DNA from: Escherichia coli
GTDB lineage: Bacteria; Pseudomonadota; Gammaproteobacteria; Enterobacterales; Enterobacteriaceae
Length of the DNA stretch: 64,000 bases
Direction: 5' to 3' (one strand)
Assembly: GCF_050920415.1 (NCBI RefSeq)
Contig: NZ_CP169309.1
Below are positions 27,264 through 54,462 of the stretch, piece after piece (positions within the stretch are counted from its first letter, which is position 1; each line of letters opens with the position of its first letter). The notes under the pieces are model-generated. The model did not search any database. It worked only from the letters and a program-made list of their open reading frames with translations, and was not told the origin of the DNA. The position numbers and the translations under genes were made by a program.

Positions 27264-27339
27264 TGGCTCCTCTGACTGGACTCGAACCAGTGACATACGG
27301 ATTAACAGTCCGCCGTTCTACCGACTGAACTACAGAGGA
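27264..27339 (-). tRNA. asnV: tRNA-Asn (GUU).
   Basis: The 76-nt reverse complement reads UCCUCUGUAGUUCAGUCGGUAGAACGGCGGACUGUUAAUCCGUAUGUCACUGGUUCGAGUCCAGUCAGAGGAGCCA. Confidence 0.93.
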
Positions 27340-29670: not shown

Positions 29671-29746
29671 TGGCTCCTCTGACTGGACTCGAACCAGTGA
29701 CATACGGATTAACAGTCCGCCGTTCTACCGACTGAACTACAGAGGA
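29671..29746 (-). tRNA. asnU: tRNA-Asn (GUU).
   Basis: The 76-nt sequence is identical to the other Asn tRNA copies. Confidence 0.93.
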
Positions 29747-31494: not shown

Positions 31495-31570
31495 TCCTCT
31501 GTAGTTCAGTCGGTAGAACGGCGGACTGTTAATCCGTATGTCACTGGTTCGAGTCCAGTCAGAGGAGCCA
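31495..31570 (+). tRNA. asnW: tRNA-Asn (GUU), in the opposite orientation to the other three copies.
   Basis: It reads tcctctgtagttcagtcggtagaacggcggactgttaatccgtatgtcactggttcgagtccagtcagaggagcca. Confidence 0.93.
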
Positions 31571-37706: not shown

Positions 37707-45695
<7,989 letters not shown>

Positions 45696-46107
45696 GCTTA
45701 CCTTCCCTGAACGAGCTAACATAAATGCGCCCTTTCTAGCACAGCGAAAAAATATAAATCCTGATAGCAATATGATTGAAAATTAATAACTTTTCGTTAA
45801 GCAGTTTTGGGTGTGAGTTGCAAGAGGGGAGACTACTGAATAACTCAGTTTAATAATTGAGGGGGCAATGGTGACGAATATAGGGACGGAGTAGAGAAGA
45901 TAGTGCTGAACTCTTTGCCAGCAGAAGGTTATGTGGCACAAAAATAACCGTAACTTCTCACTCTCGACAGGAAAGCTGTAGACGGCGTCCATAACAAAAC
46001 GCCCCCAACCATAAGGTCGAGGGCGCTTAAGATGACAAACCCGCTCTTCGTTAAAGAATCAATGCTTAATGTAGATGAGTTGCATTGCACGATAAAAGCG
46101 AATTTTT

Positions 46108-46128
46108 AGAATTTGGCTCCTCTGACTG
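46108..46128. repeat. Direct repeat of the tRNA-Asn 3' end, an attR-like island boundary.
   Basis: The sequence gaatttggctcctctgactgg is identical to 54382-54402. It covers 16 nt of the tRNA-Asn 3' end plus 5 flanking nt and then diverges. Confidence 0.7.
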
Positions 46129-46462
46129 GGATCGCCGTAGCCATTAACAGGCTGATTGGTAAAGCTAAAAAAATTTGAGTTTGTCAAGACCACCAGAATG
46201 ACCACCATTTTAAAGTAACATTTGAAGTTTACTCAGTAGCACCTTTAGCTTCACTTACAATCAATTAACCTGTGAAGATAGCTGTACCTACAATCGCAAT
46301 AACTTATTACAGATCCGACGACAAACATCACCTGTTATCCACTCTGGCACTACCGTGCATGATAATCAATAAGTCGGGTGCTGGCTTGCAAGGCAATTGC
46401 GTTGTAATGTACCAAATCCCAGTTCGCCTTCACTCTAAAATGCCCCGACGTTTCGAACGCGT

Positions 46463-47341
46463 TTACGGTAAATAATGCGTGACAATCTGCAGGAACTCAT
46501 CCCGCATCTGGTTGTCGATTTTCGGATTCCATGCCACACCAATGTTCCATATGATCTGCTTTCCCCACAGAGTAATCAGCTTGACTCCTACAGGTAAAAA
46601 ATTCTCGACGCTGGCGGGTAGCAGCGCGAGACCATTCCCTCCGGCTATCAATGCTAGCAGGGAATGAATATCATTCGTCGCAGAGATTGGCTCAATGATG
46701 AGTTCATTATCCCGCAGGAACGCAGTCGTTTGCTCCGCCAGACAAGGGCTGACCGCTGGATCCATGCATAAAATCGGATAGATTGCCAGCGTACGCTGGA
46801 GATCGGTGGGATCAATATCGACGGCTACCGGGACAGCCAACACCAGATTTTCTTTATTTATTAAGCGAGAGGCCAATAATTCTGTTACCGGCATACGAAC
46901 AAAACCAGCATGCAGTTCACCTTCCATCAACATCCTAGCTTGTACGCTGGAGGCAATTTGGCTGATAACAACGTCGCAGTCGGGAAATTTCTGGCGAAAA
47001 GTGTTAATCCAAACTGGTGTGCTTTTAAACGAAGATATACCAAATCCGAGCACCAGTTTACCCGTACTCCCCTTTTGGATTTCTCTGGCGTAGGTTAAAA
47101 AATCGTGGTGGGATTTCAGCAACTCATAAGCTTTAGCAAACAACTGCCTGCCAACCATCGTCAACACTGCCCCGTGGCGACCACGCAGGAAAAGCTGCCC
47201 TCCGGTCTTCTGTTCGAGCATCTTGATCTGCTTTGAAAGCGCAGGTTGTGTCAGAAATAAAGCTTCTGCAGCTTTATTGTAGTTTCCCTTTTCCGCCAGT
47301 GTCACAAATGCACGCAGCAGCCTTATATCTATTCCTGACAT
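46463..47341 (-). CDS. LysR-family transcriptional regulator, divergent from the islet operon.
   Basis: The 292-aa product starts MSGIDIRLLRAFVTLAEKGNYNKAAEALFLTQPALSKQIKMLE. Confidence 0.85.
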   Translation of the reverse strand: MSGIDIRLLRAFVTLAEKGNYNKAAEALFLTQPALSKQIKMLEQKTGGQLFLRGRHGAVLTMVGRQLFAKAYELLKSHHDFLTYAREIQKGSTGKLVLGFGISSFKSTPVWINTFRQKFPDCDVVISQIASSVQARMLMEGELHAGFVRMPVTELLASRLINKENLVLAVPVAVDIDPTDLQRTLAIYPILCMDPAVSPCLAEQTTAFLRDNELIIEPISATNDIHSLLALIAGGNGLALLPASVENFLPVGVKLITLWGKQIIWNIGVAWNPKIDNQMRDEFLQIVTHYLP

Positions 47342-47567
47342 TTATTGAATCCTGAAAAATTGGAATTATACAAATACTCGCAACAGATGACATGATGCGT
47401 AAAATGATTTACGCCGAGATCCCCTTGGTTTGTCAAACTCAGAAACGCCATACCTGCTGCTCTTGGTTCTATTTAACACTCACTAATGCGCAGGTTATTT
47501 ATAAAAATTGACCTCATAAATCATTCAAAAACATTAATTATATAAATACAATAAGGATTAAATATTT

Positions 47568-48167
47568 ATGCCAAATATTGCCGTTCTCACTAATGACCTG
47601 CAGTATGAGTTTACCTACAAAATAACACGCTCTCCAGAAATTCTGGCGCAAAAACTCGTCCAGTTTAATCAGTTTCTCGATGGCATTCGCGCTCTGGATC
47701 AATCCATTATCCACCTGCAACTTATCAACGATCCTAATGACCCGGCGGTACAAAAGCGCTATCGCAACCGCGAAGCGGGCATTCCTGCACTAGCTGGTCG
47801 CCCGGAAAACCAGATTATCGATAAAGTATACCGCCCCACAGATCTGGTTGTAGTCAAGGGCAGAGACAGCGGTTTTTTTAATAACGATCTCGACGAAATC
47901 CTCCAGCAACTCGGGGTAAAAACCGTAATCGTTACCGGGTTGCAAACTCATGTTTGCGTGCAGACCACTGCAGCGGATGCCTTCTTTCGCGGCTATAACG
48001 TCTGGGTACCGGGCGACTGCGTGTTCGCTCCTTCGTCCGAAGATACAGAGCGTGCACTCGAGTGGCTTGCCAGCTATTGCGCAACTGTAGCACCTTCTGC
48101 GGAAATTTTATCAATATTGCAAAAACAGAACGATCTGCCTGAGCGCGGCGAAAGGGAAGCATCATGA
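47568..48167 (+). CDS. Cysteine-hydrolase (isochorismatase/YcaC/N-carbamoylsarcosine-amidase family) protein.
   Basis: The product is 199 aa with a D-K-C triad pattern: D in TNDLQ, K in VVVKGRDSGFF and C in LQTHVCVQTT. It overlaps the next gene as ATGA. Confidence 0.75.
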   Translation: MPNIAVLTNDLQYEFTYKITRSPEILAQKLVQFNQFLDGIRALDQSIIHLQLINDPNDPAVQKRYRNREAGIPALAGRPENQIIDKVYRPTDLVVVKGRDSGFFNNDLDEILQQLGVKTVIVTGLQTHVCVQTTAADAFFRGYNVWVPGDCVFAPSSEDTERALEWLASYCATVAPSAEILSILQKQNDLPERGEREAS

Positions 48168-49195
48168 GCTTAACCCAGACGCTAAATCATGAAGAGGTCG
48201 TTGTACTGGATCATGGCACCGGGGCGAAATTAAGCCGCGAGTTGGTTGAAAAAATTGCTAGCATTCTCGGTGACACCTATCTGGGCGTGATGGAAGATAG
48301 CGCGGTGCTGGGGTTATCCACCAGGCGAATTGCCTTCACCACCGACTCCTTTGTTGCCACGCCGCTGATTTTCGGCAACGGTGATATTGGCAAAATCGCC
48401 GTATGCGGCACCGTTAACGATCTCGCTGTCAGTGGGGCTCGTCCCCTTTACATCACACTCAGTCTTATTATTGAGGAAGGTATGCCGATGGCTGATCTGG
48501 TCAGAATCATCGAGTCCGTACGTGAAACGGCTCGTGAGGCAGAGGTCAAGATTGTCGCTGGTGATACCAAGGTCGTAGGTAAAGGTGAAGCAGATCGGCT
48601 GTTTATCAATACTGCTGGCATCGGCGTGTTTGAACATCCGCCAGTCTCAGTTAAGAACGTGCGTCCGGGGCAGAAAATAATCCTGAGCGGATATATCGGC
48701 AATCACTCGATTCACCTGCTGTCGATGCGGGAAGGATTGGGGTTCGAGCGAAATATTCTTAGTGATTGCGCACCGCTGAACCACATTATTGACAAACTTA
48801 TCAGCAACATCCCTGAAGGCAAAATAGCGTCAATGCGAGACGTTACGCGCGGTGGGCTGTCCGCTGTTTTACACGAACATGCGCGCGCAACAAATTATCA
48901 GATTCATTTCGACCAGCCATCTTTGCCCATACAGCCGGAAACCGCCATGGCAGCTAATATGCTGGGTGTTGACGTCATTAATCTCGCTAATGAAGGTTGT
49001 TTGTGCCTGTTTGTTGAACCTGAGTATGCTCAGAAGGTACTACATTTGCTGCAGGAGCATCCTGTCGGCAAGCACGCGACAATTATCGGCGAGATCACCG
49101 CTGTCTCGGGTACTGAAGTCTATATGATTGAAGCTGATGGAACACACACAGAAGTCGAGGAATTATATGGCGCAGAATTACCCAGACTCTGTTGA
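48164..49195 (+). CDS. HypE paralogue (PurM-superfamily carbamoyl dehydratase) with the C-terminal PRLC cysteine.
   Basis: The product is 343 aa. IAFTTDSFVATPLIFGNGDIGKIAVCGTVNDLAVSGARPLY and DTKVVGKGEADRLFINTAGIG match HypE. It ends ...GAELPRLC. Confidence 0.82.
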   Translation: MSLTQTLNHEEVVVLDHGTGAKLSRELVEKIASILGDTYLGVMEDSAVLGLSTRRIAFTTDSFVATPLIFGNGDIGKIAVCGTVNDLAVSGARPLYITLSLIIEEGMPMADLVRIIESVRETAREAEVKIVAGDTKVVGKGEADRLFINTAGIGVFEHPPVSVKNVRPGQKIILSGYIGNHSIHLLSMREGLGFERNILSDCAPLNHIIDKLISNIPEGKIASMRDVTRGGLSAVLHEHARATNYQIHFDQPSLPIQPETAMAANMLGVDVINLANEGCLCLFVEPEYAQKVLHLLQEHPVGKHATIIGEITAVSGTEVYMIEADGTHTEVEELYGAELPRLC

Positions 49196-51545
49196 GCTTC
49201 ACGAGACGCCGGAAACCCGGCGTTACCGCATCTGTGGGGTCGTTCAGGGCGTTGGATTTCGTCCCTTTGTTCACCGACTGGCCCGCACCTATGGTGCCAC
49301 CGGCTGGGTGTTAAACGATTCAGAAGGCGTGTTGCTTGAGCTGCAGGCATCCGGCACGGTTATTGCCAGAATCATGGACAAACTGGTGACCGAGGCACCA
49401 CCACTGGCAAAAATCATCAGTACGCAGGAAGTTAGCCCAACGGATACCAGAGCGCACTATGAAACGTTCAGCATCCGTAAAAGCCGCGATCATACCAGCA
49501 TGGACACGATTATCCCGCCAGATACCAACGTCTGCAGCGATTGCCTGCGCGAGATAAGCGATCCTGATAATCATCGTTATCGTTACGCTTTCACCAATTG
49601 CACCAATTGTGGGCCGCGCTATTCCATTATTCTTGGTATGCCTTACGATCGTGCCCAGAGCACTATGCGTAAATTCCCTTTATGTCCAACCTGTGAGCGT
49701 GAATACAACGATATTGAGGATCGACGCTATCATGCCCAGCCCAATGCCTGCCCAGTTTGCGGCCCACAGTTGCAACTTACCGATCGACAGGGCACATCCG
49801 TTCACACAGATGATATTGTCAAATTTGCCATTACGAAACTAAAAGAAGGCGGAATTCTTGCAATAAAGAGCCTTGGTGGCTTTCATCTCGTGGCCGATGC
49901 TTGCAATGAGAATGCTGTCAATGAACTTCGGCAACGCAAGCGAAGAGACGCCAAACCTTTTGCAGTGATGGTCGCGGATGTGGAAAGCGCGTCGCGTATT
50001 GCTTTCATCCCCCCCTGTAATCACAAATTGCTGGAAAGCCCGCAGCGTCCCATTGTCTTGTTGTATAAGCGCAACGTCCTGCTGGCGAGTACCGTTGCGC
50101 CACATAATCCGAACATCGGTGTAATGCTGCCTTCAACGCCGCTTCAGCATTTATTGCTGGAAGACCCGTCTCTGCCGATCCTGATTATGACCAGCGGTAA
50201 TATTTCCGGTCATCCGATCGTCTTTGACAACGACATGGCAATTAAGCAACTCGGGAAAATCGCGGATTACTTCATTCTGAATAATCGCGATATTCATACG
50301 CGTGTTGACGATTCGGTGGTCCGCACGGTGTTTCTCAACGACGCCATTACCTCGCAGCTATCGTTTTTGCGCCGCTCCCGCGGTTACGCGCCATACCCTA
50401 TTCATCTACCTTACGCAGTGGATTCCGTTATCGCGCTCGGGGCGGAGCTAAAAAACACGATCAGCATCGGCAAAGGAAAACAGGTTTTTCTGAGCCAGCA
50501 TATTGGCGATCTTAAGAATAACGTGACTTTTAAATCACATATCGAATGTATTGATCATCTTCAAAACCTGCTGAACGTGAAGGCAAATGTCGTGGCCTGC
50601 GATTTGCATCCCTCTTTCCGCTCTACCCGGCATGCGCTGGAGAATTTAGAGCATCAGGTTGTTCAGGTTCAACACCATCACGCGCATATGGCATCCTGCA
50701 TGGCGGAAAATGGCCTGTCAGGTACTACTCTAGGCGTAATTTTTGACGGTACAGGATATGGCACCGACGGCACCATTTGGGGCGGTGAGTTTCTCGTTGG
50801 TGATTTCGAAAAATTCGAGCGTGCAGGATGCTTGCGTTCAATGACCCTGCCCGGAGGCGATCGGGCAGTTAAAGAGCCGCTGCGCGTCGGCATCTCCTTA
50901 CTGGTGGAAACCTTCGGCGAAGATATCAGTACGCTCGCAGTACCAGGCTTGCAGGCGCTCCAGCCTCAGCAGCGCGATATATTCAGTAAAATGGCGACCA
51001 GAAAAATCAACACCACCACGACCAGCAGCATGGGCAGACTATTTGACGGCATCGCCGCGCTGATGGGCGTTTGCACTCAGGTGGAGTACGAAGCCCAGGC
51101 GGCCATTGAACTGGAAGCGCTGCTGCAGTGTAAACTTCATATGACGGCTCCGTTCAGCTACATCATTGCCGATGTCGAGAATAAGCTCGAGGTGGATTAT
51201 CGCCCGATGATAAGGGAACTGGTGCAATGCTTCAGCCAGCCCGGTTTTGATATGGCCGAACTAAGTCGGCGCTTTCACTCTACCATCGTCGACATGATTT
51301 GCGAGGTCTGTAAACGTCTGGTGGCACGCTCAGGCACGCAACAAATTGTCCTGAGCGGCGGCGTGTTCTGCAATGAATTCATCCTCGTTAATTCTCTTAA
51401 CAGTCTGGAGTCTTGTGGATTCCGGCCTTACAGCCATCAGTTAGTTCCGACTAACGATGGTGGTATTTCATTGGGGCAAGTGGTTATTGCTACCGCATAC
51501 ACTCGCGCAACGCGCAATAAAAATCTGGAGAGAGAAAATGCATAG
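49167..51545 (+). CDS. HypF paralogue (carbamoyltransferase) with acylphosphatase, two Zn-finger, YrdC and Kae1-like domains.
   Basis: The product is about 792 aa. The motifs are VQGVGFRPFV, CSDC...CTNCGPRY, CPTCERE...CPVCGP, LGGFHLVADA and VQHHHAHMASC. GAGG precedes the ATG at 49167, which lies inside the hypE-like 3' end. Confidence 0.85.
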   Translation: MAQNYPDSVELHETPETRRYRICGVVQGVGFRPFVHRLARTYGATGWVLNDSEGVLLELQASGTVIARIMDKLVTEAPPLAKIISTQEVSPTDTRAHYETFSIRKSRDHTSMDTIIPPDTNVCSDCLREISDPDNHRYRYAFTNCTNCGPRYSIILGMPYDRAQSTMRKFPLCPTCEREYNDIEDRRYHAQPNACPVCGPQLQLTDRQGTSVHTDDIVKFAITKLKEGGILAIKSLGGFHLVADACNENAVNELRQRKRRDAKPFAVMVADVESASRIAFIPPCNHKLLESPQRPIVLLYKRNVLLASTVAPHNPNIGVMLPSTPLQHLLLEDPSLPILIMTSGNISGHPIVFDNDMAIKQLGKIADYFILNNRDIHTRVDDSVVRTVFLNDAITSQLSFLRRSRGYAPYPIHLPYAVDSVIALGAELKNTISIGKGKQVFLSQHIGDLKNNVTFKSHIECIDHLQNLLNVKANVVACDLHPSFRSTRHALENLEHQVVQVQHHHAHMASCMAENGLSGTTLGVIFDGTGYGTDGTIWGGEFLVGDFEKFERAGCLRSMTLPGGDRAVKEPLRVGISLLVETFGEDISTLAVPGLQALQPQQRDIFSKMATRKINTTTTSSMGRLFDGIAALMGVCTQVEYEAQAAIELEALLQCKLHMTAPFSYIIADVENKLEVDYRPMIRELVQCFSQPGFDMAELSRRFHSTIVDMICEVCKRLVARSGTQQIVLSGGVFCNEFILVNSLNSLESCGFRPYSHQLVPTNDGGISLGQVVIATAYTRATRNKNLERENA

Positions 51546-52278
51546 TTCTGCGAACCGTATTGCCGCTGTTTTATTCGATATGGATGGTGTCCTTATTGAT
51601 TCCAATGCGGTGATTGAGCGCGGCTGGGCTGAAGGCGCACAGATGTTTGGCAAGACGCTAACGGAAGAGGATATCGTCAGGCATATTCACGGACAGCCCG
51701 GCCCGCATACCATTCGCGCCCTGTTCAGCGACCTTTCCCTGGAAGATCAAAAGAAGGTCCAGTCACATATCATCCACGTTGAAAATACCGCTGATTACGA
51801 CCCGATCCCTGGAGTTAGCGAACTTATCCAGGCGTTGCATAAGGCTGGCATCAGTGTGGGGATTGTCACTAGCGGCTGGCGGTCGAAAATCGATCGTATT
51901 ATGGAGATGCTGCAAATCACGCCCTGTATTTCAGTGATTGTCGAACGTGATGATGTCGTGCGCGGCAAGCCTTATCCCGATCCTTATCTGCTTGCCGCAG
52001 AGCGGTTTCATCTTGCACCGTCCAGAACACTGGTCTTTGAGGATTCAAGAAGCGGCGTAACATCTGCTGTTACAGCAGGCGCAATTTGTGTTGGCATCGG
52101 TACAGACAGTCTGAAAGAGTGCGGTGCCGTGCTTGCAATTACAGATTTTCGTAATGTGAAAATCACCTCACAGACAGGCGAAAAAGTAGTGATTGCCTTT
52201 ACTCCAGAGCACCAGATGGAGATGGAAACTCAGAGCTCTCGTAAGAAAACATCCTGTACCACAAGAGAAGAGTGCTAA
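51538..52278 (+). CDS. HAD-superfamily hydrolase (beta-phosphoglucomutase/phosphatase-like).
   Basis: The product starts MHSSANRIAAVLFDMDGVLIDSN (DxDG motif I). Motif IV is in the VFEDSRSGVTSA region. It overlaps the hypF-like stop by 8 nt. Confidence 0.75.
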   Translation: MHSSANRIAAVLFDMDGVLIDSNAVIERGWAEGAQMFGKTLTEEDIVRHIHGQPGPHTIRALFSDLSLEDQKKVQSHIIHVENTADYDPIPGVSELIQALHKAGISVGIVTSGWRSKIDRIMEMLQITPCISVIVERDDVVRGKPYPDPYLLAAERFHLAPSRTLVFEDSRSGVTSAVTAGAICVGIGTDSLKECGAVLAITDFRNVKITSQTGEKVVIAFTPEHQMEMETQSSRKKTSCTTREEC

Positions 52279-53471
52279 TGAATATCACACAGAAGGGACG
52301 CTGGGCTGTCACTATGCTATTTTTTATCAATGGCTTCGTCACCGGAGGTTGGGCTGTGCAAATTGCACAGCTTGTACCACGCTTTGGCGTGACCGACAAA
52401 GTGATCGGCCATTTAATTCTGATCTTCGGATTCGGTGCACTAACCATGATGCCCATATCAGGCATTCTGATGGAAAAGATGGGGACACAAATCGTAACGC
52501 GTATTTTTGCCCTTGCAGCCTCCCTGGCATTAATTCCGGTTGGTTTAGCCACCACCCCATTAGTGTTGATGCCAGCGTTATTTGTTCTTGGTGCGATGAT
52601 TGGTGCCATGAATGTAGCGATGAACTCGAATGCCGTGGCGGTGGAGAGATCACTCTCACAAGCGATTTTATCCTCCTGCCATTGCTTCTGGAGTATCGGC
52701 CTATTTGCGGCGGGCTCGATAGGCGGCCATCTTGTTGAACAATTTGGCTTTTTGACGCATATCTTTTTGATTAGTGCCGTGGCCTTAATACTGACGCTGA
52801 TTATCGCTCCGGCCATTTTTAAAGACATACAGACGGTTAAATCCACCAGCAGACAGACCACCCGGTTGCCTCGTTCTCCGGCGATTTATCTGATTGGATT
52901 GATGGCTTTTCTGGCCATGATCCCTGAATGCGCTGTTGTTGACTGGTCGTCACGCTATTTGATTAAAAATCTCAATGCAAAAACAGAAATCGCCAGCCTT
53001 GCCTTCGCCTGCTTTGCTGTAGCAATGGCCTTGTTTCGCTTTATGGGTGACGTGATCCGCAACCGCTTCGGCGCAATATTAATTATACGAATCTCCAGCT
53101 TACTGGCAGGCGCTAGCCTATTGTTGAGCGCACTGGCACACAATCCCTGGCAGGCGATCTGCGCATTTACCTTAGCGGGAATCGGCATCGCCAACCTTGT
53201 GCCCATTGTCTTTTCCGCAGCGGGAAATCAGCCCAATATTTCCACCAACACAGGAATGAGCATTGCCACAACCATTGGGTATTTAGGCACGCTAATGGCC
53301 CCTGCGCCTATTGGCTATATTGCGGAAATAACCGGTTTTCCAGTGGTTTATTGCGGACTAGCTTTCATGTCGGGAATTATCTTTTTGCTGGCACCACTGG
53401 TTCGGGGGGCAGAAATCTCTGTACAGCGGCAGCGAGCCTCAAACAAACACCAGAATACCGGAGCGTTGTAA
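52278..53471 (+). CDS. MFS transporter.
   Basis: The product is about 397 aa with 12 predicted transmembrane segments. Its ATG overlaps the TAA of the HAD gene as TAATG. Confidence 0.8.
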   Translation: MNITQKGRWAVTMLFFINGFVTGGWAVQIAQLVPRFGVTDKVIGHLILIFGFGALTMMPISGILMEKMGTQIVTRIFALAASLALIPVGLATTPLVLMPALFVLGAMIGAMNVAMNSNAVAVERSLSQAILSSCHCFWSIGLFAAGSIGGHLVEQFGFLTHIFLISAVALILTLIIAPAIFKDIQTVKSTSRQTTRLPRSPAIYLIGLMAFLAMIPECAVVDWSSRYLIKNLNAKTEIASLAFACFAVAMALFRFMGDVIRNRFGAILIIRISSLLAGASLLLSALAHNPWQAICAFTLAGIGIANLVPIVFSAAGNQPNISTNTGMSIATTIGYLGTLMAPAPIGYIAEITGFPVVYCGLAFMSGIIFLLAPLVRGAEISVQRQRASNKHQNTGAL

Positions 53472-54027
53472 TTTCTGCCTGGCAAATACTGTGAAACGCT
53501 GACGCAAATTTTACTTTCCTGCGTATTGTCATCACAGGCCGTACAGACAGTGCGCGGTCTGTTGGCGGATCTGCCTGGTATTTTGCCGATGAACTGAGGG
53601 CGTCCTGCGGGATACGTATCGCCAGGGGCGTGAAACTAATTGATGAGGTGGCGGCATGATGCCGGCGGACTAGCATATCTGCCTTTCGCCGCCTGACATG
53701 TCCTTTGGGGCCGCTGTCAGTTCAGAGTAAAGGAGAAAAAGATCGATACCGAGGGGGGGCACGACGCCCCGGAGACACCCCTGTTTCGTCAGACAGTCTG
53801 TACCGCGTACAGCCTGAAACTCCCTAAACCTCAACAAACTGCCACTTCGACGTGAAGGTATCGTTCTGGCGCAGCCAAAAAGCACATGCCGGAGACTGTT
53901 TTTTTGGTTGTAGAGGGTAGTCATGAGCAAATTAAGTAGTGAAATGAAGGCCCTGACGAAGAAAGCAGGCGGCAGCTTCAAAACGGTAAATGACCGTATC
54001 CATATTACAAAACGGTTCAGTGAGCAT

Positions 54028-54225
54028 TTACGCGAACTGAACATCCAGATCCGGCGGGTATGCGCCAAGACTGACTCTGGATTCTTTTCCGTTGAAACGA
54101 TATTTGAGATACCAGATGCGTGAACCGCCCGGATTGACGAGCAGATACAGACCGTGAGAGTCGGAGAGTTTTACCGGACGGGAAGAGGTTTTTAACTTGC
54201 GGATTTTAGAATCGTTTAAAGACAT
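54028..54225 (-). pseudogene. P4-type tyrosine integrase N-terminal fragment (DUF4102 arm-binding domain), truncated.
   Basis: MSLNDSKIRKLKTSSRPVKLSDSHGLYLLVNPGGSRIWYLKYRFNGKESRVSLGAYP aligns to the IntB/P4 integrase N-terminus. The frame is lost after about 65 aa. It lies 160 bp from asnT and reads away from it. Confidence 0.65.
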
Positions 54226-54386
54226 TTGGGGGTCACTCCAGAATCGAACCAAACTGACCCCAGATCTGACCACCAAATTATCCCGATGCGGAGAGAAAAC
54301 CAGATACGCACCGGGGAGGATTTTCACGCTAACTTACTGAACCGTAAACAAATAGAGATGTACAGATAAGCATGAAAACTTGAATT

Positions 54387-54462
54387 TGGCTCCTCTGACT
54401 GGACTCGAACCAGTGACATACGGATTAACAGTCCGCCGTTCTACCGACTGAACTACAGAGGA
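54387..54462 (-). tRNA. asnT: tRNA-Asn (GUU).
   Basis: The 76 nt are identical to the other three copies. It sits at the islet boundary next to mtfA. Confidence 0.9.

Follow-up and report, generated by a model that had tools for sequence, protein, structure and literature searches.

To our knowledge, HypF and HypE have no described role other than to supply [NiFe]-hydrogenases with their cyanide ligands, during whose maturation the two enzymes form a protein-bound thiocyanate (HypE-S-CN), a chemistry that is established for the family. Isochorismatase-like cysteine amidohydrolases attack amide or ureido carbonyls, forming S-acyl or S-carbamoyl enzyme intermediates, and regulators of the LysR type can form divergent pairs with the genes that they control, such as CynR-cynTSX, BenM/CatM-ben/cat and IlvY-ilvC. 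In this work, we describe a locus of Escherichia coli in which members of these families are encoded side by side. It was found in a chromosomal stretch of 64,000 nucleotides of contig NZ_CP169309.1 (RefSeq assembly GCF_050920415.1), hereafter called the window, and the segment of interest (47342-48167) comprises the spacer between a lysR gene and a five-gene operon, plus the first gene of this operon, which codes for a cysteine hydrolase. The four following genes code for paralogs of HypE and HypF, a hydrolase of the haloacid dehalogenase (HAD) family and a transporter of the major facilitator superfamily (MFS).

Our data suggest that this region is the control end of a self-contained and horizontally acquired module of 8.3 kb, hereafter the islet, in which the LysR regulator and the five-gene operon would serve a hydrogenase-independent pathway of cyano or carbamoyl transfer to small molecules. 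We give this reading a probability of about 0.6. The enzymes belong to known families, and the regulatory arrangement by itself is ordinary, being a standard LysR divergent pair; it is the combination and its context that are undescribed in the searchable literature. We found no characterisation of the hydrolase-HypE-HypF trio in that literature, which covers few subscription journals, so one may exist. The interest of the region lies in what it controls, that is, a diverged HypF/HypE pair fixed to a dedicated cysteine hydrolase, as a trio that is kept from E. coli to Burkholderia, myxobacteria and actinomycetes and is found in natural-product-like clusters.

The hydrolase, HypE and HypF trio

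The same six genes were obtained from the open reading frame (ORF) listing of the window and from the RefSeq/PGAP annotation of an E. coli chromosome 100% identical to it over positions 46000-54000 (Table 1). HypE scored above the cut-off of the curated model TIGR02124 (415 vs. 251.6 bits), matched PF00586 and PF02769 (the N- and C-terminal AIRS domains) and aligned end to end with solved HypE structures, its terminal LPRLC falling on PRIC with the cysteine as the last residue. HypF scored above the cut-off of TIGR00143 (788 vs. 466 bits), has all of the expected domains (acylphosphatase, two HypF zinc fingers, YrdC and Kae1-like) and aligned over its full length with the solved structures 3VTH and 4G9I. 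Because these are the same enzymes as the hydrogenase-maturation pair, their first two steps, S-carbamoylation and ATP-dependent dehydration to the S-cyano form, are expected to be the same. Nevertheless, each of them is only 39% identical to the protein of E. coli itself, whose canonical hypE is present in 5423 of 5426 complete genomes and whose hyp operon is located elsewhere. No hypA, hypB, hypC, hypD or hydrogenase genes were found in the islet or its flanks, either in the ORF listing or in the RefSeq annotation, and hypC, hypD and hydrogenase genes were likewise not found in the trio loci of Streptomyces, Sorangium, Burkholderia, Trinickia, Alteromonadaceae and Cystobacter.

With the hydrolase as query, 60 loci were recovered in other species, and further loci came from separate look-ups. 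Matches to HypE and HypF follow directly after the hydrolase, in the same order, in 56 of the 60, and the trio-linked copies are 55-80% (HypE) and 48-70% (HypF) identical to those of the islet. The hosts among the 60 loci include Enterobacterales, Sorangium, about 40 actinomycetes, Photobacterium, Hafnia and Kalamiella, to which the look-ups added Burkholderia, Trinickia, one Alteromonadaceae genome and Cystobacter. The LPRLC C-terminus is unchanged in every intact trio-linked HypE across phyla, whereas canonical E. coli HypE ends in LPRIC, and LPRLC may be a sequence signature of a hydrogenase-independent HypE subfamily. A preliminary description of this DNA had held that the operon is not a mosaic of unrelated genes, and the comparison bears this out, as the order hydrolase-HypE-HypF is kept across phyla and the HAD and MFS genes come next in Proteobacteria.

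In all proteobacterial loci of the HAD type, the HAD gene comes directly after hypF. Besides the HAD phosphatase and the MFS gene, some proteobacterial loci add a GlmS copy, a GlmS-isomerase-like protein, a glycosyltransferase, an amidohydrolase or a nitrilase-superfamily gene; GlmS or a GlmS-isomerase-like protein, together with a nitrilase-superfamily gene, was found in the Alteromonadaceae, Burkholderia and Trinickia versions. Myxobacterial neighbours are a nonribosomal peptide synthetase (NRPS), a glutathione transferase and an ABC exporter, and the Cystobacter locus has, with an NRPS alongside, SbnA and SbnB, both above their cut-offs, which would make 2,3-diaminopropionate. In Streptomyces, Hafnia and Photobacterium, the trio is accompanied by an enzyme of the diaminobutyrate transaminase family, an ATP-grasp ligase and an exporter; where tested, in Hafnia, the ligase is DdaF-like, at 215 bits against a cut-off of 840. 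Since these recurring partners supply or ligate primary amines, an amine would be the likely acceptor for the trio. Moreover, the unit is modular: beyond Proteobacteria, other genes stand behind the trio and another type of regulator goes with it. In a passing remark, Kloosterman et al. (2020; PMC7794033) had independently pointed to homologs of hypE and hypF next to an ATP-grasp gene, with no further hyp genes around them, and concluded that their function must be a new one.

The islet pair might be thought of as a spare set for hydrogenase maturation, giving cyanide ligands to the HypCD and [NiFe]-hydrogenases of the host under special conditions, with the other genes as bystanders. Both proteins do pass the equivalog models with every catalytic feature kept. 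In addition, the trio of Paraburkholderia phymatum (Bphy_7270-7272) was listed in a transcriptome table as NifA-dependent with flanking diaminobutyrate transaminases, without comment by the authors; its genes are among the most strongly NifA-dependent ones in bean nodules, and the block Bphy_7266-7273, consisting of the trio plus GNAT and diaminobutyrate transaminase genes, adjoins the hydrogenase cluster of the symbiotic plasmid, with which it is co-regulated by NifA (PMC8305402). We nonetheless consider a maturation role very unlikely for the E. coli islet, which has none of the remaining hyp genes or a hydrogenase in or near it and is found in a host already equipped with a canonical hypE. 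The islet proteins are also closer to trio-linked copies in other phyla (48-80% identity) than to their host counterparts, they are in fixed linkage with a cysteine hydrolase that plays no part in the maturation of hydrogenases, and in other organisms the trio is found in contexts of secondary metabolism.

The D...K...C triad that had been read from the hydrolase sequence is present as D10/K97/C130, which aligned with the catalytic residues of solved isochorismatase-like hydrolases and is at least 97% conserved at each position among 115 family members. Additional conserved residues are a second cysteine (C171), W146, W166 and the C-terminal L190-P191. An AlphaFold2 model of the protein had a predicted local distance difference test (pLDDT) score of 91 and reached template modelling (TM) scores of 0.7-0.8 to solved members of the family. 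Among the nearest solved folds, the characterised enzymes are maleamate amidase, N-carbamoylsarcosine amidase, the triuret and biuret hydrolases and RutB, all of which use a cysteine nucleophile to cut C-N bonds of the amide or ureido type. The hydrolase belongs to a narrow subfamily, with seven representatives at E<=1e-30 among 1.84e9 proteins, and scores for the NCBIfam equivalogs of the characterised subfamilies (RutB, BiuH, YcaC and PncA) were far below their cut-offs, as in the case of RutB (54 vs. 378).

Such relatives could speak for a catabolic or detoxification operon, in which the MFS protein would import a carbamoyl, ureido, cyanate-like or nitrile compound, the hydrolase would cleave it and LysR would sense the substrate. 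The nearest characterised relatives of the hydrolase are indeed catabolic, LysR regulators often control catabolic operons, and the Burkholderia and Trinickia versions include a nitrilase-superfamily gene. On the other hand, HypF and HypE spend ATP on the assembly of a C-N unit and are not known from any degradation pathway, the hydrolase subfamily is set apart from the catabolic enzymes (about 25% identity), and in myxobacteria and actinomycetes the trio is found within clusters for NRPS, ATP-grasp ligases and precursor supply. We therefore regard a degradative function as unlikely.

Under the biosynthetic reading that we prefer, HypF would transfer the carbamoyl group of carbamoyl phosphate, with the use of ATP, to the cysteine at the end of HypE (in LPRLC), and HypE would carry out an ATP-dependent dehydration to the protein-bound thiocyanate, both steps being assigned by homology. 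The hydrolase would then take or process this one-carbon C-N unit and direct it to the primary amine of a small metabolite, so that a cyanamide, a nitrile or a ureido compound would result. The HAD phosphatase and the MFS transporter of the islet suggest a phosphorylated acceptor and export. In the E. coli version, the acceptor would thus probably be a phosphorylated metabolite, possibly an amino-sugar phosphate, whose product would be dephosphorylated by the HAD enzyme and exported by the MFS protein. The best NCBIfam match of the HAD hydrolase is the sugar phosphatase PRK11587, below its cut-off, and the MFS transporter reached no specific NCBIfam family. PADLOC gave no anti-phage defence match for any of the six proteins, and a defence system was rejected on this ground.

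More tentatively, and as a possibility rather than an expectation, the trio may be a portable cyanating module that acts on small metabolites with primary amines, to which it would attach a cyano group (giving a cyanamide) or, following hydration, a ureido group, and the products would be antimetabolites of the glutamine-like or amino-sugar type; the islet of E. coli would then be a minimal, LysR-switched version that makes and exports such a compound in the gut. If true, thiocyanate chemistry of HypF/HypE would for the first time be seen to operate outside the assembly of metal centres. If small molecules do receive a cyano or carbamoyl unit from the trio, a new way of making nitrile, cyanamide or ureido metabolites enzymatically would be defined, and the trio would also provide a handle for genome mining. 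The question is directly testable in the islet of E. coli, the simplest of the versions, which has six genes, a regulator of its own and a genetically tractable host, and in which LysR and the spacer, both conserved, could be used to turn the pathway on.

The control region and the operon junctions

The divergent arrangement given in the preliminary description, with lysR on the minus strand, the operon on the plus strand and a 226-bp AT-rich region between them, holds in its coordinates and orientation. The LysR protein is complete, its two domains spanning residues 6-274. It reached the cut-off of no characterised NCBIfam equivalog or subfamily of LysR-type transcriptional regulators (LTTRs), and membership in a characterised LysR subfamily was rejected. 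In each of the 14 other enterobacterial loci that were recovered, the hydrolase gene has a divergent LysR ortholog (49-89% identical) in front of it, as it does in one Burkholderia locus (34% identical). Other regulators at the trio are TetR in Trinickia and AraC/GlxA-like proteins in Hafnia and Photobacterium. The conserved pairing of LysR and operon is good comparative evidence for a regulator-target pair, and the strongest of any that the two belong together. The location of lysR within the same islet as the operon means that the regulator was co-transferred with its presumed target. The LysR control proposed earlier gains support from the divergent units, the complete regulator, the common islet and the conserved pairing; control itself we infer from this typical and conserved layout, which makes it plausible. 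The inducers put forward earlier, such as cyanate, thiocyanate and nitriles, are guesses.

The spacer is poorer in G+C (31.4%) than the window (47.9%) or the operon (50.3%). Only 1.1% of all segments of 226 nt are equally AT-rich, and the orthologous spacers range from 23% to 39% G+C. A promoter for lysR was predicted on the minus strand, and the same promoter was predicted in Raoultella. The plus-strand motif GGAATTATACA (11 nt, 47362-47372) holds the -10 box TATAAT of this promoter on the minus strand; it was found, exact or one base off, in 13 of 14 aligned enterobacterial spacers and stands 20-26 nt from the lysR start in 12 of them, despite LysR proteins that are only about 50% identical.

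Beyond the lysR promoter, no support was obtained for the regulatory sites whose search in the spacer had been suggested. Matches to T-N11-A, the dyad-symmetric recognition motif that LysR regulators would have near -65 of the target promoter, are at chance level (4250 in the window vs. 4333 expected) and carry no evidential weight, and the best dyad-flanked box, GTTT-N11-AAAC, was equalled by 1508 of 2000 shuffles. A palindrome with 7-nt arms just upstream of the lysR -35 box, of T-N10-A spacing, is poorly conserved and may be regarded as a candidate operator at most; in several orthologs, dyads of differing sequence were found at similar offsets, each of them weak. No conserved sigma-70 promoter was found for the operon on the plus strand, and such a promoter was rejected: the sole consensus-like match is not conserved in Raoultella, and none was found there or in a Pseudescherichia-like locus, so that conservation is lacking even among the closest relatives. 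This match is doubtful in itself, because its transcription start would fall at or past the Shine-Dalgarno sequence AAGGA (47553-47557) and remove the ribosome-binding site. The lack of a consensus promoter is, however, what would be expected for an activator-dependent one, and the blocks shared by E. coli, Raoultella and Kluyvera in the alignment would be its likely location.

Other candidates for the spacer were discarded as well. A riboswitch or structured leader was rejected, as no Rfam family was at or near its gathering score within the spacer and no stable leader fold was found there (z = -1.0), and a 39-codon ORF on the plus strand (47391-47510), considered as a leader peptide, ends after six codons in Raoultella and is not a gene. 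The spacer also contains a perfect 9-nt inverted pair, AATGATTTA/TAAATCATT, at 47403-47411 and 47517-47525, with 105 nt between the arms (114 nt from start to start), which is only partly conserved in Raoultella and Kluyvera.

Table 1. Positions of the features of the islet within the window, with strand and supporting evidence
Feature	Position	Strand	Evidence
Left islet boundary, 21-nt repeat GAATTTGGCTCCTCTGACTGG, copy of tRNA-Asn 3' end	46109-46129		Exact repeat of 54382-54402
LysR-type transcriptional regulator, 292 aa	46463-47341	-	HTH_1 (PF00126) 1e-18, LysR_substrate (PF03466) 8e-15; same PGAP call
AT-rich divergent control region, 226 bp	47342-47567		GC 31.4%
Predicted lysR promoter: -35 ATGTCA (47393-47388), 17-nt spacer, -10 TATAAT (47370-47365)	47362-47393	-	10/12 consensus match
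Candidate operator palindrome GCGTAAA-ATGA-TTTACGC	47397-47414		7-nt arms, just upstream of lysR -35; 12/500 shuffles as good
Blocks shared by E. coli, Raoultella and Kluyvera, including GTTT-N11-AAAC (47428-47446) and TATAAA (47500-47505)	47428-47505	+	Three-species alignment
Sole consensus-like plus-strand promoter in spacer, TTCAAA-17-TACAAT (doubtful)	47524-47552	+	9/12 match
Isochorismatase-family cysteine hydrolase, 199 aa	47568-48167	+	PF00857, 3e-32
HypE-type carbamoyl dehydratase paralog, 343 aa, C-terminus LPRLC	48164-49195	+	TIGR02124
HypF-type carbamoyltransferase paralog, 792 aa, four domains	49167-51545	+	TIGR00143
HAD-IA hydrolase, 246 aa, like sugar phosphatases and beta-phosphoglucomutase	51538-52278	+	HAD_2, 3e-32
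MFS transporter, 397 aa	52278-53471	+	MFS_1, 6e-28
EFASI RNA motif RF02957	53738-53867	+	90 bits vs. gathering score 51
Two integrase gene remnants	53923-54327		Partial integrase pseudogenes in identical RefSeq record
tRNA-Asn	54387-54462	-	ARAGORN, Rfam tRNA; right-hand 21-nt repeat at 54382-54402

The four junctions of the operon were reported correctly to the base. They are an ATGA between the hydrolase gene and hypE (48164-48167, -4), a 29-nt overlap between hypE (TGA at 49193-49195) and hypF (ATG at 49167), an 8-nt overlap between hypF (TAG at 51543-51545) and the HAD gene (ATG at 51538), and a TAATG between the HAD and MFS genes (52276-52280, -1). A purine run resembling a Shine-Dalgarno sequence (GGGA, GAGGA, GGAG and AAGAG, respectively) stands 5-7 nt before each downstream start, within the preceding gene. 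The -29 overlap is found throughout Enterobacterales and also in Burkholderia, Trinickia, Alteromonadaceae and Sorangium, the -4 junction recurs in several enterobacterial and Streptomyces loci, and the -8 junction in several enterobacterial ones. Their conservation in orthologous loci indicates that these junctions are more than chance, and the overlaps support a single compact operon in which translational coupling is possible. The description of the operon as a stoichiometric unit goes too far, since overlapping stops and starts point to an operon with possible coupling and not to fixed stoichiometry: HypF acts catalytically on HypE, and the transporter need not be equimolar.

In the mechanism that we propose, the spacer would hold the lysR promoter, with its -10 box within the conserved motif, and, probably, an operator would be located there too, as well as an operon promoter that is weak and depends on an activator. 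Most likely, LysR would repress its own gene and activate the operon in the presence of a small molecule related to the pathway. The five genes would be carried on one mRNA, with the overlapping stops and starts letting ribosomes pass from gene to gene.

Integration site, distribution and decay of the islet

The LysR gene and the operon lie inside the 8.3-kb islet between perfect 21-nt direct repeats, GAATTTGGCTCCTCTGACTGG. In most E. coli, nothing separates the upstream region of yeeJ from tRNA-Asn at the repeat. A repeat derived from the tRNA 3' end and empty sites elsewhere, both found here, are the features of a tRNA-integrated genomic island. The occupied tRNA-Asn gene lies between mtfA and yeeJ and is presumably asnT of the K-12 map, a gene that in other E. 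coli is the site of the Yersinia high-pathogenicity island. The window contains four tRNA-Asn genes, the other three being at 27264-27339 (-), 29671-29746 (-) and 31495-31570 (+). Directly to the left of the islet is a gene for a 2687-aa adhesin with immunoglobulin-like repeats (37707-45770, -), called inverse autotransporter YeeJ in relatives; in the nearest RefSeq annotation, its start is slightly further downstream, giving a coding sequence of 7989 nt. The EFASI RNA motif lies past the MFS stop codon and before the integrase remnants, towards the integrase end of the islet.

The full-length islet was found in only 15 of 5426 complete E. coli genomes (0.3%), and these 15 copies are 99.2-100% identical. 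Strains that bear the islet include 2013C-4282 and MFDS1022581. The same element, truncated or internally deleted, is present in Raoultella and Kluyvera, in the latter again at tRNA-Asn. A plasmid origin was rejected, as the trio DNA had no match in PLSDB.

Relative to a second E. coli copy, which is 99.3% identical, the six genes showed 20 synonymous and 14 nonsynonymous differences, and the resulting ratio of nonsynonymous to synonymous polymorphism (pN/pS) of 0.22 is a sign of purifying selection within E. coli. At positions that differ between E. coli copies, the copy in the window keeps the conserved residues. In the goat E. coli strain R32_14_1F (L074:3669-6047), hypF differs from that of the window by six nonsynonymous and no synonymous changes, against eight nonsynonymous and 20 synonymous changes in the other five genes (Fisher p = 0.002), and two of the replacements, M158K and G228D, affect positions conserved across phyla. 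This contrast suggests that hypF is under relaxed constraint in the lineage of the goat strain.

Losses were also seen in other genera. The equivalent of window positions 47743-51489, that is, the 3' end of the hydrolase gene, hypE and hypF, is gone in Kluyvera, which keeps LysR and HAD; the Raoultella copy ends inside hypE. A metagenome-assembled genome of Buttiauxella and Gilliamella are without hypE and hypF, and in Lonsdalea, Acerihabitans and Hafnia hypE or hypF is disrupted by apparent frameshifts.

It could therefore be argued that the islet is silent, decaying cargo of a dead integrative element, with genes still intact through recent arrival, an AT-rich spacer silenced (e.g., by H-NS) and nothing expressed. 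The rarity of the islet in E. coli fits such a history, as do the deletions, truncation and frameshifts in the relatives, the hypF changes of one E. coli lineage and the lack of a functional integrase gene in the islet, where the ORF listing and the RefSeq annotation gave two partial pseudogenes beside the tRNA only. We find this explanation improbable in view of the six reading frames, which are intact in the islet copies whose annotation was inspected, the near identity of the 15 E. coli copies, the catalytic residues conserved in the copy of the window, the overall pN/pS and the conservation of the lysR promoter motif across genera.

A number of points must still be weighed against a functional, LysR-controlled pathway. 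The decay of the cassette in several relatives, together with the degenerate integrase, means that the islet could be silent, and the position of the P. phymatum trio beside a hydrogenase cluster means that a link to hydrogenase may exist in some hosts. No LysR binding site could be demonstrated in the spacer, given T-N11-A boxes at chance level and weak candidate dyads, and the operon promoter was not located in it. The single transcript and the translational coupling are predictions from gene geometry. What follows HypE-SCN, which acceptor is used and in which direction the MFS protein transports are guesses drawn from the gene neighbourhood, and the E. coli islet itself has no amine-supplying gene. 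Finally, the hydrolase might have another part, either supplying HypF with carbamate or simply setting cyanate or cyanide free.

Comparison with described systems

As a mobile element, the islet resembles the Yersinia high-pathogenicity island and the pks island, which likewise occupy the 3' end of tRNA-Asn, are marked by a direct repeat of that end and have an integrase gene next to the tRNA. It differs from them in being only 8.3 kb long, in its degenerate integrase and in a cargo made up of one regulator and one operon.

With respect to regulation, the islet is much alike the CynR-cynTSX, BenM/CatM and IlvY-ilvC pairs, as a complete LTTR is divergent from its presumed target over a short AT-rich spacer, within which the predicted promoter of the regulator itself is located. 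Unlike these pairs, it has no demonstrable T-N11-A dyad, its regulator stands outside the characterised LTTR subfamilies, and its target looks biosynthetic and not catabolic.

The hydrolase has its fold and Asp-Lys-Cys triad in common with N-carbamoylsarcosine amidase, RutB, BiuH, TrtA and maleamate amidase (NicF/Ami), but is only 20-28% identical to such enzymes, forms a narrow subfamily of its own and is genetically tied to HypE and HypF. The sister clusters of Hafnia and Photobacterium recall the dapdiamide-type clusters, as they also combine a DdaF-like ATP-grasp ligase with a diamino-acid supply gene and an exporter. Given a DdaF match so far below its cut-off and an E. coli islet without a ligase, we take this likeness as a lead to what the trio modifies and make no claim of membership.

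The closest described system is the HypF-HypE pair of [NiFe]-hydrogenase maturation. By curated models the islet encodes the same two enzymes, and its HypE has the PurM-like fold and the C-terminal PRxC cysteine. Compared with that pair, however, the proteins of the islet have diverged to 39% identity, HypE ends in LPRLC and not in LPRIC, and neither the HypC/HypD acceptor nor a hydrogenase is encoded with them; instead, the two genes are always preceded by that of a cysteine hydrolase and followed by small-molecule genes.

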